Origin: Erysipelotrichaceae bacterium | GTDB taxonomy: Bacteria > Bacillota_I > Bacilli_A > Erysipelotrichales > Coprobacillaceae | Direction of reading: 5' to 3' | Assembly (NCBI GenBank): GCA_028698185.1 | Contig: JAQVDW010000008.1 | Span: forward strand, 49,741-81,740 | DNA length: 32,000 nt | In this document: one piece after another, positions 3,877 through 23,028 of the stretch | Position numbering within the stretch: the first letter of the stretch is position 1 | Layout: every line of letters starts with the position of its first letter | Made by a program: the position numbers and the translations under genes | Notes under the pieces: generated by a model | Told to the model about the DNA's origin: nothing | What the model saw: only the letters and a program-made list of their open reading frames with translations | Database searches by the model: none

Positions 3877-3907
3877 AAAACCGCACCCGTAAAAGGCGCG
3901 GTTTTTT
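3877..3907. terminator. bidirectional rho-independent terminator between murE and the PRD gene
   Basis: Stem AACCGCACC / GGCGCGGTT (one mismatch), loop CGTAAAA, flanked by an A-run upstream and a T-run downstream. Confidence 0.7.
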
Positions 3908-4580
3908 ACTTCTGTTTGGTCACGACGACAAAGTGCAGTGCCAAAAAGGCAACTTCATCATCATTGAATTCCATATCGATATCGTCCTTGATAACATCGC
4001 GCAGTTCTGCGGCCAGGTTGAACTCTCTCATATGCCGTTGTTTGATCTGGGCAGTCAGAGGGTTGGTCAATTGGCGGTTCTCTTGCAGACGCTCAAGGGC
4101 GGGTTCCAAGTGCAATCCGATTGAGACGATGAATTTCTGTTTGTTGCTGAAATCCACGTCGTATTTTTCTTTGATTCTAGTTAAAGCTGTTTTTATGTAA
4201 GTGTATGTTTGATCATCAAGCAAGTCAATTCCGGTTGTTATTTCCAAATCCAAAGCGTTGGTTTTTCTCAAATACATGGTCACCAATGATATCTCGTTTT
4301 CCGGGAACTCGATTGCATACTGGCTGGCGATTGAATCGCAGATATCCTTGGCTACCGGATACAGTTCATCTTCTTGATATTCGAGAACTTTCGCTTTTGA
4401 CAAAGGGATATAGTTCCTGTTTTGAATGCGGATCGTGGTGATGCTTAAATGAGTGGCTAAATTTTTCTTGGAATGGCTTGATAAAAAAATGTTGTTTTTT
4501 TCGACATTACTTGAAAGAATTTCTTGAACGTTGCTCTTAACTTCATTAAAGGACTCACTTGTCATAATCTTGGTTGACAT
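3906..4580 (-). CDS. stand-alone PRD-domain protein (two PRD modules, no CAT/HTH/EII domain)
   Basis: 224 aa. PRD-like segments: LATHLSITTIRIQNR ... ENEISLVTMYL, and SIGLHLEPALERLQENRQLTNPL ... DDEVAFLALHF, the second with both conserved His positions. GGAGG RBS upstream of the ATG. Confidence 0.7.
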   Translation of the reverse strand: MSTKIMTSESFNEVKSNVQEILSSNVEKNNIFLSSHSKKNLATHLSITTIRIQNRNYIPLSKAKVLEYQEDELYPVAKDICDSIASQYAIEFPENEISLVTMYLRKTNALDLEITTGIDLLDDQTYTYIKTALTRIKEKYDVDFSNKQKFIVSIGLHLEPALERLQENRQLTNPLTAQIKQRHMREFNLAAELRDVIKDDIDMEFNDDEVAFLALHFVVVTKQK

Positions 4581-4796: not shown

Positions 4797-6860
4797 ATGA
4801 ATTTCAAAAATGAATGGTCTGGATTTACTGCTGGTAAATGGATTAAAGAAATCGATTTAAGAGACTTTATCCAAAAGAACTACACTCCTTATGATGGAGA
4901 TGACAGCTTTTTAGCAGGTCCAACTGAATCAACAACAACATTATGGGATCAAGTAATGGAGTTGACTAAACAAGAAAGAGCCGCTGGTGGCGTTCTTGAT
5001 ATGGATACTAAAATCGTATCTACTTTGACTAGCCATGGAGCTGGTTACCTTAACAAAGATTTAGAAACAATTGTCGGATTCCAAACAGACAAACCTTTCA
5101 AACGTTCTTTACAGCCAAACGGTGGTATCCGTATGGCGGTTCAAGCTTGTAGAGACAATGGTTATGAAGTTGATCCACAAGTTGTGGAAATATTCACTAA
5201 ATACCGCAAAACACATAATGCTGGGGTATTTGACGTTTATACTGAAGACATGAGAGCTTGCCGTTCTTCACACATCATCACTGGATTGCCAGATGCTTAT
5301 GGTCGTGGAAGAATCATCGGTGACTACCGTCGTGTCGCATTATATGGTACCGATCGCCTGATCGAAGACAAAAACTGGCAAAAAGATACTACAAGAGTCC
5401 GTATGGACCCTGAAAACATCCAATTGCGTGAAGAATTGTCTGAACAAATGCGTGCATTGAAAGAATTGAAAGAAATGGCTGCTTCTTACGGTTTTGACAT
5501 TTCAAAACCCGCAAAAGACGTTAAGGAAGCAATCCAATGGTTATACTTCGGATATTTGGCTGCCGTTAAGGAACAAAACGGTGCTGCAATGTCTTTGGGT
5601 AGAACTTCCACTTTCATCGACATCTATGCTCAACGTGACTTGGATAACGGTACTTACACTGAGGAACAAATCCAAGAATTCATCGACCATTTCATCATGA
5701 AATTGCGTCTTGTAAAATTCGCCCGTACTCCTGATTACAACGCAATCTTCGCCGGAGACCCAACTTGGGTAACTGAATCAATCGGAGGTGTCGGTGTTGA
5801 TGGACGTCACTTGGTAACAAAATCATCTTTCCGTTACCTGCACACATTGATTAACTTGGGAACTTCTCCTGAACCAAACTTGACAGTATTATGGTCAACT
5901 CGTTTGCCACAAGAATTCAAAAAATTCTGTGCTAAAATCTCAATCGAAACCTCATCTATCCAATATGAAAATGATGATTTGATGCGCGTTTCTCATGGTG
6001 ATGACTACGCTATCGCATGTTGCGTATCTTCAATGAGATTAGGAAAAGAAATGCAATTCTTCGGAGCCCGTGCCAACCTGGCTAAATGTTTGTTATACGC
6101 AATCAACGGTGGTGTCGATGAAAAATCCAAAAAACAAGTCGGACCTAAATTCCGTCCTGTAACTTCAGAATATCTTGACTATGATGATGTAATTGAAAAA
6201 TATGAGGACATGATGAAATGGTTGGCTGATGTTTATGTCAACTCATTAAACATCATCCACTACATGCATGACAAATATGCATACGAAAGAATCCAAATGG
6301 CGTTGCATGACCGTGAAGTAAAACGTTACTTCGCAACTGGTATCGCTGGTCTTTCAGTAGTAGCAGACTCACTTTCAGCAATCAAGTACGCTAAAGTAAA
6401 AGTAATCCGCGACGAATCAGGATTAGCTGTTGACTATCAAGTTGAAGGTGACTTCCCAACTTACGGAAACGATGATGACCGTGTTGACGAAATCGCCAAC
6501 TGGTTAGTTCATACTTTCATGGGATATGTAAAAACTCACTTCACATACAGAAATTCAGTACCAACTACTTCAATCTTGACAATCACTTCTAATGTCGTAT
6601 ATGGTAACGCAACAGGAAACACTCCTGATGGCCGTAAAGCCGGTGAACCATTCGCGCCAGGTGCCAACCCAATGCACGGTCGTGACAAATCAGGAGCGGT
6701 ATCTTCATTGGCTTCAGTTGCCAAATTACCATTCGCTGATGCTCAAGATGGTATTTCAAACACTTTCTCAATCATTCCTGGAGCTTTAGGTAAAGATGAT
6801 CAAGTATTCATGGGTGACCTTGAAGTTGATCTTAATCTTGAAGATTTAGATAACAAATAA
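4797..6860 (+). CDS. pflB: pyruvate formate-lyase (formate C-acetyltransferase) catalytic body, lacking the C-terminal glycyl-radical domain
   Basis: 687 aa. PflB-like from [23 protein letters not shown] through the Cys-Cys active site AIACCVSS to [14 protein letters not shown]. It then ends in an acidic tail and a stop, with no RVSGY motif. Codon usage is strongly biased (AT-rich third positions, cgt/ggt/aaa). Confidence 0.9.
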
Positions 6861-6876
6861 GAAAGAAGGTATTAAG

Positions 6877-7092
6877 ATGTCTAAGGAACAAAATATTGAC
6901 GATTTGGTTAATATGTTGGATTCGATTGCCTCAAAAGGCGCTGGACATATTAATGTGATCGTTGAAAATCCTGAAGAGGTGGATTTGCAGGATGCCAGCA
7001 TAACCGAAGGCTGCAACTGCGAAATCGGCGATACTGCCTGCAAAATCCCGAACATGCCGCTATATGGCGAAGATGGATCGGACAAATATTAG
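6877..7092 (+). CDS. small protein: radical-less paralog of the N-terminal part of the PFL glycyl-radical domain with a Cys-rich acidic tail
   Basis: 71 aa, with GAAGG RBS 7 nt upstream. Residues 1-41 parallel the downstream module ([16 protein letters not shown] versus [16 protein letters not shown]). The tail is [30 protein letters not shown]. Confidence 0.55.
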
Positions 7093-7105: not shown

Positions 7106-7345
7106 ATGGCTAACGAACAACAAGTAGACAACCTAGTAAATATGTTGGATGGTTACGTTGAACAAGGTGGACATCACTTGAACGTCAACGTATTCAACCG
7201 TGAAACATTATTGGATGCCCAAGCTCATCCGGAAAAATACCCACAATTAACTGTGCGTGTCAGTGGATATGCGGTTAACTTTGTCAAACTGACAAAAGAA
7301 CAACAAAACGACGTAATCTCACGTACTTTCCACGAAGGTATGTAA
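7106..7345 (+). CDS. autonomous glycyl-radical domain protein (GrcA/YfiD-like; the detached C-terminus of PFL)
   Basis: 79 aa from the ATG at 7106, preceded by [65 protein letters not shown] contains the RVSGY glycyl radical signature. The track ORF start at 7064 overlaps the previous cistron and lacks an RBS. Confidence 0.9.
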
Positions 7346-7350
7346 TAGTG

Positions 7351-7382
7351 AAACCTGGATCAATGTCCAGGTTTTTCTTTTT
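7351..7382 (+). terminator. rho-independent terminator of the pfl locus
   Basis: AAACCTGGA-tcaatg-TCCAGGTTT followed by a T-rich run, 6 nt after the stop. Confidence 0.8.
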
Positions 7383-7603
7383 CCTAAATTCCGGGGATTG
7401 AGTTTGGGGTCCCAGCGACTTTAAAGCGATATGAAAATAATATTTTAAAAAATATTTTTTTAAGATATGAAACTCCAGATTCAAGTTGCCCGAGTCCGCT
7501 TAATTATATTTCATTTCTCGAATTTGTTATTGATTTTTAAGGGAAAATATATAATAATATTCACGTAAAATTATTGATGAGATGAAAAGGAAAGTAAAGT
7601 AAA

Positions 7604-7864
7604 ATGAGTTTTTACAACACTAGAAATCGGCTTGGCGAAATAAAGTTCGATTATGAAGATGGTTTTGAAAATGAAGATGTTTTAGCTTATGAATTTGGTC
7701 TCGAATTGGATGAAAGTGATGAGGAAGAAATATACGATTTTACTAAAATCGTCAAAAGGATGTCAGGCGTGGAGTTGTTGGATATTTATCAATACAAGCA
7801 CGAACTTTCATCTACAGCCAATAATATAATTGTGAATGAAATGGCTCGAAGAAAACTGATATGA
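7604..7864 (+). CDS. hypothetical small acidic protein (86 aa)
   Basis: Own AAAGGAAAG RBS region and own terminator. About 20 Asp/Glu, including the run DESDEEE. No family recognised. Confidence 0.5.
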   Translation: MSFYNTRNRLGEIKFDYEDGFENEDVLAYEFGLELDESDEEEIYDFTKIVKRMSGVELLDIYQYKHELSSTANNIIVNEMARRKLI

Positions 7865-10577: not shown

Positions 10578-11996
10578 ATGTTTATTATCGACATCATTGT
10601 CAACATCTTGTCAACACCTGCGATTCTGGTCGGTCTATTGGCCATGCTGGGTCTGGTCCTGCAAGGAAAGCCGACATCGGCGATCATCAAGGGAACAATC
10701 AAGACAATCGCTGGATTTGTAGTACTTGGGGCGGGGGCGTCTTACCTGCTTTCGGGTTCATTGAATGATTTTGGAACACTGTTCAATTTCGCATTCAAAA
10801 TGCAAGGGGTCGTTCCAAACAACGAAGCGATCGTATCTCAAGCGCTCACCCAATACGGTCAGGCTACTGCTTTGATCATGTGTTTCGGGATGGTCGCAAA
10901 TATCGTCCTGGCCCGGTTCTCAAGGATGAAATACATCTTCCTGACCGGTCACCACACTCTGTACATGGCCTGCATGATCGCGGTCATCCTGTCGGTTGGA
11001 GGGTTGTCAGGAATTCCATTAATCATCGGCGGTTCGGCATTGTTGGGTCTGGTTATGGTCATTTCGCCAGCGTTGCTCCAGCCTTCAATGGAAAAGATCA
11101 CCGGTTCAAAAGATCTTGCCTTCGGACATTTCGGGGGATTCGGGTATTTTGTATCCGCTCAAGTGGGAAAACTTTTCAAAGGTTCAAAATCGTCTGAGGA
11201 TATCAACTTCCCTAAGGGGTTGTCATTCCTGCGTGACACTACAGTATCGATTTCCATCACAATGATTGTCTTTTTCATGATCGTAACAGGAGTTGCGGTA
11301 ATGAACGGTGGCTTGAGCGATCCGACCATCTCGGCTCTGTTCGCAGGTGGTGACACGAAAACCCACTGGCTTGTATGGGCTCTTATGCATGGTATCAATT
11401 TCGCCGCTGGGGTCTACATCATCCTTTCAGGTGTTCGTCTTATCATCGGTGAAATCGTTCCGGCCTTCAAAGGAATCGCCGAAAAACTGGTTCCTAATTC
11501 AAAACCTGCCTTGGACTGTCCGGTTGTCTTCCCTTACGCTCCAAATGCGGTATTGATTGGATTCTTGGTATCGTTTGCCGGTGGTATCGTTGGTCTTCTA
11601 GTGCTGGGAATGATCAACACCAACCTGATTCCGGTTGCCTTGATTTTGCCTGGGGTCATCCCTCATTTCTTCTGTGGGGCTTCGGCCGGTGTATTTGGCA
11701 ACGCCCAAGGCGGTCTTAAAGGATGTATTGCCGGTTCGTTCGCTCATGGTCTTTTGATCACTTTCCTTCCGGCAATCTGTATGCCGGTCATGGGAGCGCT
11801 CCAATTCGCGAATACGACATTCTCGGATGCCGACTTCTCGGTAGTGGGAATCCTGATCGGGAATGTGGCCCAATATGTCCAAGGCTATGGCTTGCTGGCA
11901 ATATGTCTGGTCTTATTCGCCTTGCCGATTGTCTATAATCTGGTGGCCCCAAAAAAGGTAAACAAGGAAGCTGACGAAAAAGCTTATTCAAAATAA
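10578..11996 (+). CDS. PTS EIIC permease, ascorbate family (UlaA/SgaT-like)
   Basis: 472 aa polytopic membrane protein with an SgaT-like N-terminus (IVNILSTPAILVGLLAMLGLVLQ). AGGAGG RBS. Flanked by matching IIA and IIB genes. Confidence 0.85.
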   Translation: MFIIDIIVNILSTPAILVGLLAMLGLVLQGKPTSAIIKGTIKTIAGFVVLGAGASYLLSGSLNDFGTLFNFAFKMQGVVPNNEAIVSQALTQYGQATALIMCFGMVANIVLARFSRMKYIFLTGHHTLYMACMIAVILSVGGLSGIPLIIGGSALLGLVMVISPALLQPSMEKITGSKDLAFGHFGGFGYFVSAQVGKLFKGSKSSEDINFPKGLSFLRDTTVSISITMIVFFMIVTGVAVMNGGLSDPTISALFAGGDTKTHWLVWALMHGINFAAGVYIILSGVRLIIGEIVPAFKGIAEKLVPNSKPALDCPVVFPYAPNAVLIGFLVSFAGGIVGLLVLGMINTNLIPVALILPGVIPHFFCGASAGVFGNAQGGLKGCIAGSFAHGLLITFLPAICMPVMGALQFANTTFSDADFSVVGILIGNVAQYVQGYGLLAICLVLFALPIVYNLVAPKKVNKEADEKAYSK

Positions 11997-22328: not shown

Positions 22329-22366
22329 AGTGTACAAGTGCGCTGAAATATTGTATAATACAGGCG

Positions 22367-22488
22367 TGAACAGGGGTGCCCTAAAGGCTGAGATAAACCC
22401 TTATCACCTGATCTAGTTAAGACTAGCGTAGGGAGTTCAATTATATTGGAACCTTGCGCCTCGATCATTTCAATGGAGGTGTTTTTTA
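22367..22488 (+). promoter_or_regulatory. TPP (THI-box) riboswitch with SD-sequestering expression platform
   Basis: P1 TGAAC/GTTCA enclosing GGGGTGCC..GGCTGAGA..ACCC..ACCTGATCTAGTTAAGACTAGCGTAGGGA. Downstream CCTC (22459-62) can pair with the GGAGG RBS of thiT. Candidate promoter TGTACA-17-TATAAT at 22331-22359. Confidence 0.9.
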
Positions 22489-23028
22489 ATGAAAGTCAAA
22501 GATCTAGTTTTCATGGGGATGTATGTCGCTCTTGCCCTGGTGCTTGAGTCTGTTTCCCAAATCGTTCCCATCTTGCAAATGCCACTTGGTGGCAGCATCA
22601 ACCTGGGAGTAATCCCGATCATTCTTGCGTCATATCATCTGGGGTGGAAAAAAGGCTGGTCAGCCGGTTTTCTTTGGTGGTTTGTCGGATTCACTTTGTT
22701 TGGATTCAACCGCTGGTATCTCAATCCGGCCCAATATTTTCTGGATTACCTGATTCCCGATACGATCATCGGCATTGCCTGTGTGATGCCTAAACTGTTT
22801 ATGAAAAACAATCTTTACACCGGTATCGTCCTTGTGTCGGTTATCCGGTTTCTGGCCAATGTCCTTTCGGGCGTGTTCTTCTATTTTCCTGAAGGATCAG
22901 CCCCAGGCAGTTTCGGCGCTTGGGTCTATTCAATCAACTACAATCTGTGGTATAACCTGGCAACAATGGTGGTCGCGATCATCATCGCCCCTATTTTGAT
23001 CAAACGGATTCCGATGCGCAAGATCTAA
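22489..23028 (+). CDS. thiT: thiamine transporter ThiT (ECF S-component)
   Basis: 179-aa six-helix membrane protein directly behind a TPP riboswitch. Size and hydrophobic pattern are typical of ThiT. Confidence 0.8.
   Translation: MKVKDLVFMGMYVALALVLESVSQIVPILQMPLGGSINLGVIPIILASYHLGWKKGWSAGFLWWFVGFTLFGFNRWYLNPAQYFLDYLIPDTIIGIACVMPKLFMKNNLYTGIVLVSVIRFLANVLSGVFFYFPEGSAPGSFGAWVYSINYNLWYNLATMVVAIIIAPILIKRIPMRKI

Follow-up and report, generated by a model that had tools for sequence, protein, structure and literature searches.

PFL is a central fermentation enzyme and the founding model for glycyl radical enzymes (GREs). According to a 2026 review, spare-part proteins are known only as YfiD, and accessory subunits only for HPAD, BSS and MASS; Y06I has also been named as a spare-part protein (PMC8683613). 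In E. coli, tight binding of YfiD and efficient activation depend on cPFL residues 696-733 (PMC8683613). The strain table of another study lists GrcA as restoring formate production in E. coli with radical-less G734A PflB only (PMC12338860), a rescue that we infer to be displacement of an intact radical-less domain. Among the accessory subunits, BSS-beta affects both the radical domain and the formation of the thiyl radical (PMC13450708, PMC12590467). On separately encoded radical domains, our literature search returned only studies of YfiD in E. coli or of GREs other than PFL; the name "GrcA3" occurs in no paper found, and none was found on GrcA together with Lachnospiraceae and formate acetyltransferase.

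Here we describe a split PFL locus in 32,000 nucleotides of a contig from an Erysipelotrichaceae bacterium (this whole stretch is called the window). Three genes on one strand make up the unit, and a 71-aa open reading frame, which we call mid, lies in the middle. The features are as follows.

4797-6860, + strand: truncated PFL catalytic body, 687 aa (Pfam PFL-like, E 5e-221)
6807-6857, + strand: acidic non-PFL tail of the body (the PflB alignment ends at body residue 670)
6865-6869, + strand: Shine-Dalgarno-like GAAGG, 7 nt before the mid ATG (read from the sequence)
6877-7092, + strand: 71-aa ORF (mid protein) with an ATG start, between body and GrcA3
6877-6978, + strand: mid residues 1-34, helix and beta-strand handle, paralogous to GrcA3 1-34 and approximately PflB 678-709
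6979-7011, + strand: mid residues 35-45, acidic linker, poorly conserved, pLDDT below 50
7012-7059, + strand: mid residues 46-61, conserved Cys motif (from an alignment of diverse members)
7060-7092, + strand: mid residues 62-71, acidic C-terminal tail, and the stop codon
7093-7098, + strand: strong Shine-Dalgarno AAGGAG for GrcA3 (read from the sequence)
7106-7345, + strand: 79-aa glycyl-radical subunit with RVSGYAV, GrcA3 (NCBIfam NF038360)
7350-7385, + strand: intrinsic-terminator-like hairpin (7350-7375) and T run, an 11-bp stem followed by TCTTTTTCCT, which closes the three-gene unit

An initial annotation, made from the sequence alone, had taken the genes on either side of mid for two pieces of a PFL, and alignments to PflB bear this out. 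The 687-aa body matches positions 2-669 of the 744 in TIGR01255, and its residues 7-670 align with E. coli PflB 12-681. It keeps the active-site Cys pair C408/C409, ends just short of the glycyl-radical hairpin, spans the whole Pfam PFL-like model and covers only positions 1-51 of the 106 in the Pfam Gly_radical model; its tail carries a signature common to split PFL bodies, [VI]F-x-GD[LI][DE]-x-D. The 79-aa protein scores 168.3 bits against the GrcA3 cut-off of 158 and so belongs to that family, matches TIGR04365 (GrcA/YfiD) and NF008341 (GrcA2) below their cut-offs, and takes up Gly_radical positions 50-106 of 106. Its residues 3-79 correspond to E. coli PflB 679-760. The body and the 79-aa module, which cover PflB 12-681 and 679-760, thus make up one complete PFL between them, and mid is an extra copy of approximately PflB 678-709. 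Mid has a Shine-Dalgarno-like site of its own, as first annotated. No terminator-like match lies between the three genes; the one other such match on the + strand falls inside the GrcA3 gene (7254-7273). pflA was not found anywhere in the window.

Upstream of the body, a divergent gene (3906-4580, - strand), syntenic in relatives, encodes a 224-aa PRD-domain protein that matches only the PRD part (~65-162 of 272) of GlcT/LicT antiterminator models and seemingly lacks the N-terminal RNA-binding domain. Just 3' of the PFL unit is an acidic 86-aa ORF (7604-7864, + strand) without a Pfam or NCBIfam family, which occupies the same position in Coprobacillaceae relatives with a dN/dS of 0.1-0.3. Past it, synteny is not conserved in the related Coprobacillaceae chromosomes, where group II intron reverse transcriptases and an IS110 transposase are inserted just 3' of the PFL unit (L005, 5274-6557 and 8173-8240; L006, 6112-7320). 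Further along the window, an ascorbate-type PTS EIIC is a single 472-aa ORF (10578-11996); in a close MAG chromosome (L001, 8698-10115) the same gene is called as two ORFs of 217 and 255 aa, a split that reflects a frameshift or an assembly error. A TPP riboswitch (22362-22451, + strand; Rfam RF00059, 74 bits) stands directly 5' of a YuaJ-type thiamine transporter gene (22489-23028).

The resemblance of mid to the downstream radical module, first noticed by eye, is statistically significant. BLASTP aligns the two with 17 identities in 33 positions (E 3e-10), the GrcA3 NCBIfam model matches mid residues 3-34 only (E 2.5e-5, 24.3 bits), and hhalign joins the mid and GrcA3 families over 36 columns covering mid residues 1-34, with a probability of 96% and an E of 4.8e-9. 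The shared part thus spans ~34 residues, and not the ~41 originally proposed. The handle keeps residues common to GrcA3 and full-length PFL. By contrast, nothing in the C-terminal half of mid aligns to the glycyl-radical loop and RVSGYAV is absent, in keeping with the original view of mid as a radical-less paralogue of the module's docking part. Searches with the 71-aa protein gave no Pfam match at E <= 1, Gly_radical included, and no match to TIGR04365 or NF008341. The nucleotide string that had been reported as identical in the two genes is the 12-mer AATATGTTGGAT, found at 6910 and 7139 and nowhere else in the window; it adds little, because both copies encode N-M-L-D. We considered this identity as a sign of recent gene conversion and rejected it on that ground and because comparisons across the family point to an old split.

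We then asked how widely mid is kept. In related Coprobacillaceae loci, taken from MAG chromosomes and short metagenomic contigs, the 687-71-79 order is retained and mid is always 71 aa long and 82-100% identical. The initial annotation had proposed conservation and dN/dS in relatives with the split pfl as a check on the ORF: it is kept in syntenic relatives, with a pairwise dN/dS of 0.04-0.25 and dS up to 1.3-1.7. These values are comparable to those of GrcA3 (0.01-0.16) and slightly looser than those of the body, and in almost every pair dN is lower over codons 41-71 than over the N-terminal half. Judged by these substitution patterns, mid is a genuine protein-coding gene under purifying selection.

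Beyond this family, a scan of one genome per species placed mid relatives between a PFL body and GrcA3 in 52 genomes, two of them from Coprobacillaceae and the remainder mostly from Lachnospiraceae and other Clostridia, with Oscillospiraceae among the families. Cultured hosts are Cuneatibacter caecimuris, Konateibacter massiliensis and Acetatifactor aquisgranensis, and cultured Subdoligranulum variabile has the split arrangement with a variant of mid. Across the inspected loci with enough flanking sequence, mid shares the strand of its two neighbours, a body of 678-714 aa before it and a GrcA3 of 79-83 aa after it, in 44 of 44 non-redundant complete triplets. A Lachnospiraceae locus reached through its GrcA3 has this order: a 702-aa body is followed by a 74-aa ORF with the same architecture as the 71-aa mid, an 81-aa GrcA3 and pflA. 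In some Lachnospiraceae split-PFL loci (L009/L010, 5305-5473; L064, 4692-4859) pflA is followed by a gene for a 55-aa two-cluster ferredoxin, which may be the electron donor for the activase.

A profile search collected 2,474 clusters of the mid family at 90% identity, in which every named cluster is a "hypothetical protein" and Pfam domains are absent throughout. Searched exhaustively, 1.84 billion representatives yielded 267 clusters at 50% identity, almost all of 42-140 aa; the profile recovers a Coprobacillaceae representative (P0003) that is 83% identical to the window protein with an E of 3.4e-19. An 813-aa match (P0314) is a coiled-coil repeat protein and was discarded as a false positive. 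No natural fusion able to stand in for the complex was present in the best 120 family matches or the best 150 representatives; longer GrcA3 entries that looked like such fusions are start-codon artefacts.

These sequences also bear on how mid arose, which the initial annotation had ascribed to a partial tandem duplication in this lineage. Over the helix-strand core, mids from different loci are 0.69 identical to one another and 0.53 identical to the GrcA3 of their own locus, and identity to foreign GrcA3s is the same (0.53). Because mids resemble one another more than they resemble their own GrcA3, the duplication of the handle was ancient and single, not recent and local, and the family is now old and widespread.

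Alignment of 26 diverse members, one of them fused to a body, locates the constraint. A54, C55 and P58 are invariant and C48 is nearly so; in the handle, D8, D9, V11, M13, L14, D15, G23, H24 and N26 are near-invariant. The handle follows the pattern DD[IL]V-x-MLD ... G-x-GH-x-N[VI], to which window residues 8-27 conform, and the Cys motif, which the window protein likewise fits, reads C-x(1-9)-A-C-x-[VI]-P-[TN]-[LM] and then acidic residues. Between the two, the linker ranges from ~10 to more than 50 residues (long in P0246, P0281, P0293 and P0310). The emphasis originally placed on three Cys needs correction, as three are common and two are universal. An AF2 monomer model built on a 123-sequence alignment has a helix at residues 3-20 (pLDDT ~80) and falls below 50 beyond residue 35. 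That only the helix folds is in keeping with a protein that takes up its fold on a partner, and speaks against a zinc-ribbon-like module able to fold by itself; the mid family profile retrieved nothing relevant from solved structures. Alignment and model together indicate that mid is a protein of three parts: a docking-type handle, a flexible and variable linker, and a conserved motif of two to three Cys.

We next compared expression signals. In line with the earlier remark that mid uses codons like those of the bulk genome, its log-likelihood ratio per codon (pfl-body versus bulk table) is -0.59, against -0.78 +/- 0.23 for 21 other window genes, +0.67 for the body and +0.48 for GrcA3; every 71-codon chunk of the body scores at least +0.475. 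This holds across loci: on average, codons preferred by the body make up a fraction of 0.44 in mid, 0.60 in GrcA3 and 0.65 in the body itself, and mid lies under GrcA3 in 42 of 43 loci. Shine-Dalgarno matches of at least 5 nt precede GrcA3 in all 44 loci and mid in 26 of 44 (35 of 44 at >=4 nt). The lower codon optimisation and weaker Shine-Dalgarno sequences suggest that mid is made at a lower level, and has a lower copy number, than the two enzyme pieces on either side, with codon bias in ~70 codons serving as an indirect proxy.

The Cys motif is also found outside mid. In Helcococcus, the acidic tail of a 714-aa body runs directly into ...TDTCVGNACSIPTL..., and GrcA3 and then pflA follow the body with no middle ORF. 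We also inspected 80 metagenomic loci picked solely by similarity to GrcA3. Essentially all of their GrcA3 genes are stand-alone, and the junction upstream almost always holds a Cys element of one of three kinds: a mid ORF; an A-C-x-I-P-N/T motif fused to the body tail, such as ...GDLDLDRIEECGNQACNIPNI or ...DCPTCVDIPNLLEGLD; or a short LDCGCCEG tail. The body-fused motif comes without the helix-strand copy. Fusion of the same motif to body tails makes it an independent conserved module of split PFLs; in the window type, the motif is delivered in trans on a copy of the GrcA3 docking handle. The earlier claim that a Cys tail had replaced the radical loop thus holds as to the tail, which is conserved, and fails as to simple replacement, given an independent module that follows a variable linker and is body-fused elsewhere.

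Only a few loci seemingly have no Cys element at all. Two of them (L091 and L100) have a split PFL with a Cys-free body tail and no middle ORF visible before GrcA3, and because of these the element is not absolutely universal. Thirty metagenome loci that appeared to have no motif by regular expression proved on inspection to hold mostly variant motifs, frameshifts or missed mid ORFs. In one further locus (L072), GrcA3 (~1495-1737) is not beside a PFL body and directly follows ribosomal-protein-like genes; it may be an orphan copy. A subtype of eight loci (L096, L102, L105, L111, L112, L117, L118 and L133, with GrcA3 near 1500-1900) has body tails that end in LDCGCCEG, and its GrcA3 proteins carry a ~60-70-aa C-terminal extension with the motif PR[TR]SVG[ST]MSMP[SD][DG]F.

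In four other loci (L108, L120, L134 and L145) GrcA3 itself ends in CxCGC, and all four bodies end in ...LDCGC[CS]EG... GrcA3 proteins with the CxCGC tail occur in 4 of 29 loci with Cys-rich body tails and in 0 of 90 others. This pairing is a hint that the junction Cys element contacts bound GrcA3, and that the body tail and the CxCGC terminus might share a metal site or a disulfide. As a partner for the Cys motif within the body we also considered C378 and C431, which are kept in split bodies. Both are shared with one-piece PFLs, from Listeria, Clostridium butyricum and Peptoclostridium, and so are not specific; the lead was rejected.

What might mid do? We propose, with a probability of roughly 0.42, that it is a sub-stoichiometric accessory factor for assembly or gatekeeping at the place where the exchangeable radical subunit docks. 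Its handle would dock in or next to the body slot used by GrcA3's own helix-strand, and the tethered Cys motif would then come to lie at the mouth of the glycyl-radical site, be it empty or occupied. Mid would in this way hold and protect a body without its radical subunit, and would hand the slot to activated GrcA3 or help to evict a damaged one. We favor this reading because the docking residues are retained, expression is seemingly sub-stoichiometric and E. coli offers precedents. It belongs to the class of plug, chaperone or regulator advanced in the initial annotation, which is plausible as the leading class of explanation. The body-fused motif has a different implication: where it belongs to the body polypeptide, 1:1, and lacks a helix-strand copy, as in Helcococcus and many metagenomic loci, the working end can act without occupying the GrcA3 slot, which better fits a permanent latch than an exchangeable placeholder. 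Mid would in that case bind together with GrcA3, and the Cys motif, perhaps by sharing a metal ion or forming a disulfide, would clamp the non-covalent radical subunit to the body and so replace the covalent link of a one-piece PFL. The confinement of CxCGC-tailed GrcA3 to loci with Cys-rich body tails agrees with such a clamp, as do the promotion of YfiD binding and activation in E. coli by cPFL 696-733, the equivalent of the mid handle (PMC8683613), and the Cys-rich accessory subunits that modulate the radical domain in BSS, HPAD and MASS (PMC13450708, PMC12590467). However, body and GrcA3 already tile a full PFL, so that no free slot is evident for a second helix-strand, and the lesser codon optimisation and weaker ribosome-binding sites of mid are not what one would expect of a stoichiometric subunit in an enzyme this abundant. 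Further, only two Cys are universal, window-type GrcA3 has none, and the AF2 model holds no folded metal-binding module. On this balance we consider a permanent clamp somewhat unlikely, though as the main rival it deserves serious weight.

A response to oxygen would overlap with both the gatekeeping and the clamping roles. The C-x(n)-C pair might switch between thiol and disulfide, or between metal-bound and free, on exposure to O2. The effect would be to close or open the radical site, or to quench the glycyl radical before destructive cleavage sets in. The pair of Cys, spaced 1-9 residues apart, is the family's most conserved feature, a replaceable radical subunit has a logic concerned with oxygen damage, and HPAD-gamma has a proposed, though undemonstrated, protective role in radical reduction (PMC13450708). 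Against this, no redox partner is encoded nearby in the inspected loci, the reading is purely inferential, and an invariant Ala-Cys and Pro, with hydrophobic and acidic residues after them, look more like a specific docking motif than a generic thiol switch; we regard it as improbable. Far less probable again is the more speculative suggestion of the initial annotation, that of a RiPP-like precursor whose leader, of radical-domain origin, would offer a Cys-rich core to a radical-SAM enzyme. A small Cys peptide is indeed encoded beside the radical-SAM activase PflA in many loci. Yet the presumed core is the most conserved part and the presumed leader less so, the opposite of typical RiPPs; the ordinary PFL activase is the sole radical-SAM neighbour across more than 60 loci, and the window has no pflA at all. 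No SPASM-type maturase, protease or exporter was present in any inspected locus, the named radical-SAM RiPP families in NCBIfam gave no match, and the motif doubles as the C-terminal tail of a ~700-aa body. Similarity of the N-terminus to a neighbouring gene and bulk-like codons could, finally, suggest decay, with mid a non-functional relic of a duplicated 3' end that merely is still open. A dN/dS of 0.04-0.25 at dS up to 1.7, a length and motif kept across families and orders of Firmicutes, and invariant residues within the novel C-terminal part effectively refute this. We therefore regard the 71-aa mid protein as no dead decoy, and as no precursor peptide either.

The GrcA3 half of this system is known to database curators; mid is not described in the literature searched, in agreement with the initial annotation, which knew of no described equivalent. 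Our comparisons suggest that the split PFL of many gut Firmicutes that encode mid has a third, undescribed component. More broadly, we tentatively propose that a block of gut Firmicutes (Lachnospiraceae, Oscillospiraceae, Coprobacillaceae and Helcococcus) may rely on an obligately multi-piece PFL with a disposable radical subunit, in which the Cys-Pro element would be a new GRE component that controls loading, retention or exchange of that subunit, possibly by metal or thiol chemistry shared with GrcA3. The comparisons point to a natural, widespread design in which the radical domain is a separate 79-83-aa protein and is accompanied by a conserved small Cys-motif protein or tail. It raises the questions of how a non-covalent radical subunit is loaded, held and replaced after oxygen damage, whether mid is a dedicated, evolved counterpart to the unexplained 696-733 requirement in E. 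coli repair, and whether split PFLs of gut commensals could be engineered or targeted. With thousands of copies now labelled "hypothetical protein", the mid family deserves a name and a database model.

Among known systems, mid fits none of the radical-SAM RiPP precursors of the SCIFF/ranthipeptide or sactipeptide type, which have an adjacent maturase, a variable core and a conserved leader; the neighbours of mid are the PFL body, GrcA3 and, in many loci, an ordinary PflA. Class III ribonucleotide reductase NrdD has a C-terminal Zn(Cys)4 site beside the glycyl-radical loop that is thought important for radical generation. NrdD and mid have in common a Cys cluster by a glycyl-radical domain; in NrdD, however, the four Cys are in the radical's own polypeptide, and the two are not homologous. 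Like mid, the small subunits of other GREs (BSS beta and gamma, HPAD gamma, and MASS beta, gamma and delta) contain Cys and are encoded with the catalytic subunit. They bind to that subunit, and their folded domains, HiPIP- or rubredoxin-like, hold Fe or Fe-S sites with four ligands; PFL is not known to have a subunit of this kind. The Cys region of mid has two universal Cys, a pLDDT below 50 and no sequence match in Pfam, NCBIfam or the PDB. With two to three Cys, one predicted helix and no sequence relation to these subunits, mid instead derives from the GRE's own radical domain.

The spare-part proteins are also among the closest known systems. GrcA3, GrcA/YfiD and phage T4 Y06I are, like mid, small stand-alone proteins encoded with PFL, and the N-terminal ~34 residues of mid are homologous to the GrcA3 N-terminus (approximately PflB 678-709), presumably with the same docking surface. 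At 24.3 bits against a cut-off of 158 and with no glycyl-radical loop, mid is not a member of GrcA3; it cannot carry a radical, and its Cys motif is absent from spare-part proteins. A further likeness is to the 696-733 remnant of oxygen-cleaved E. coli PFL, which, like mid, comprises the beta-10 strand region without a working Gly loop (PMC8683613). That remnant is a covalently attached damage product that raises spare-part binding and activation (PMC8683613). Mid, unlike the remnant, is separately encoded, under selection and equipped with an added conserved Cys motif. Both coexist with a separate radical-bearing module that holds its own copy of the beta-10 strand.
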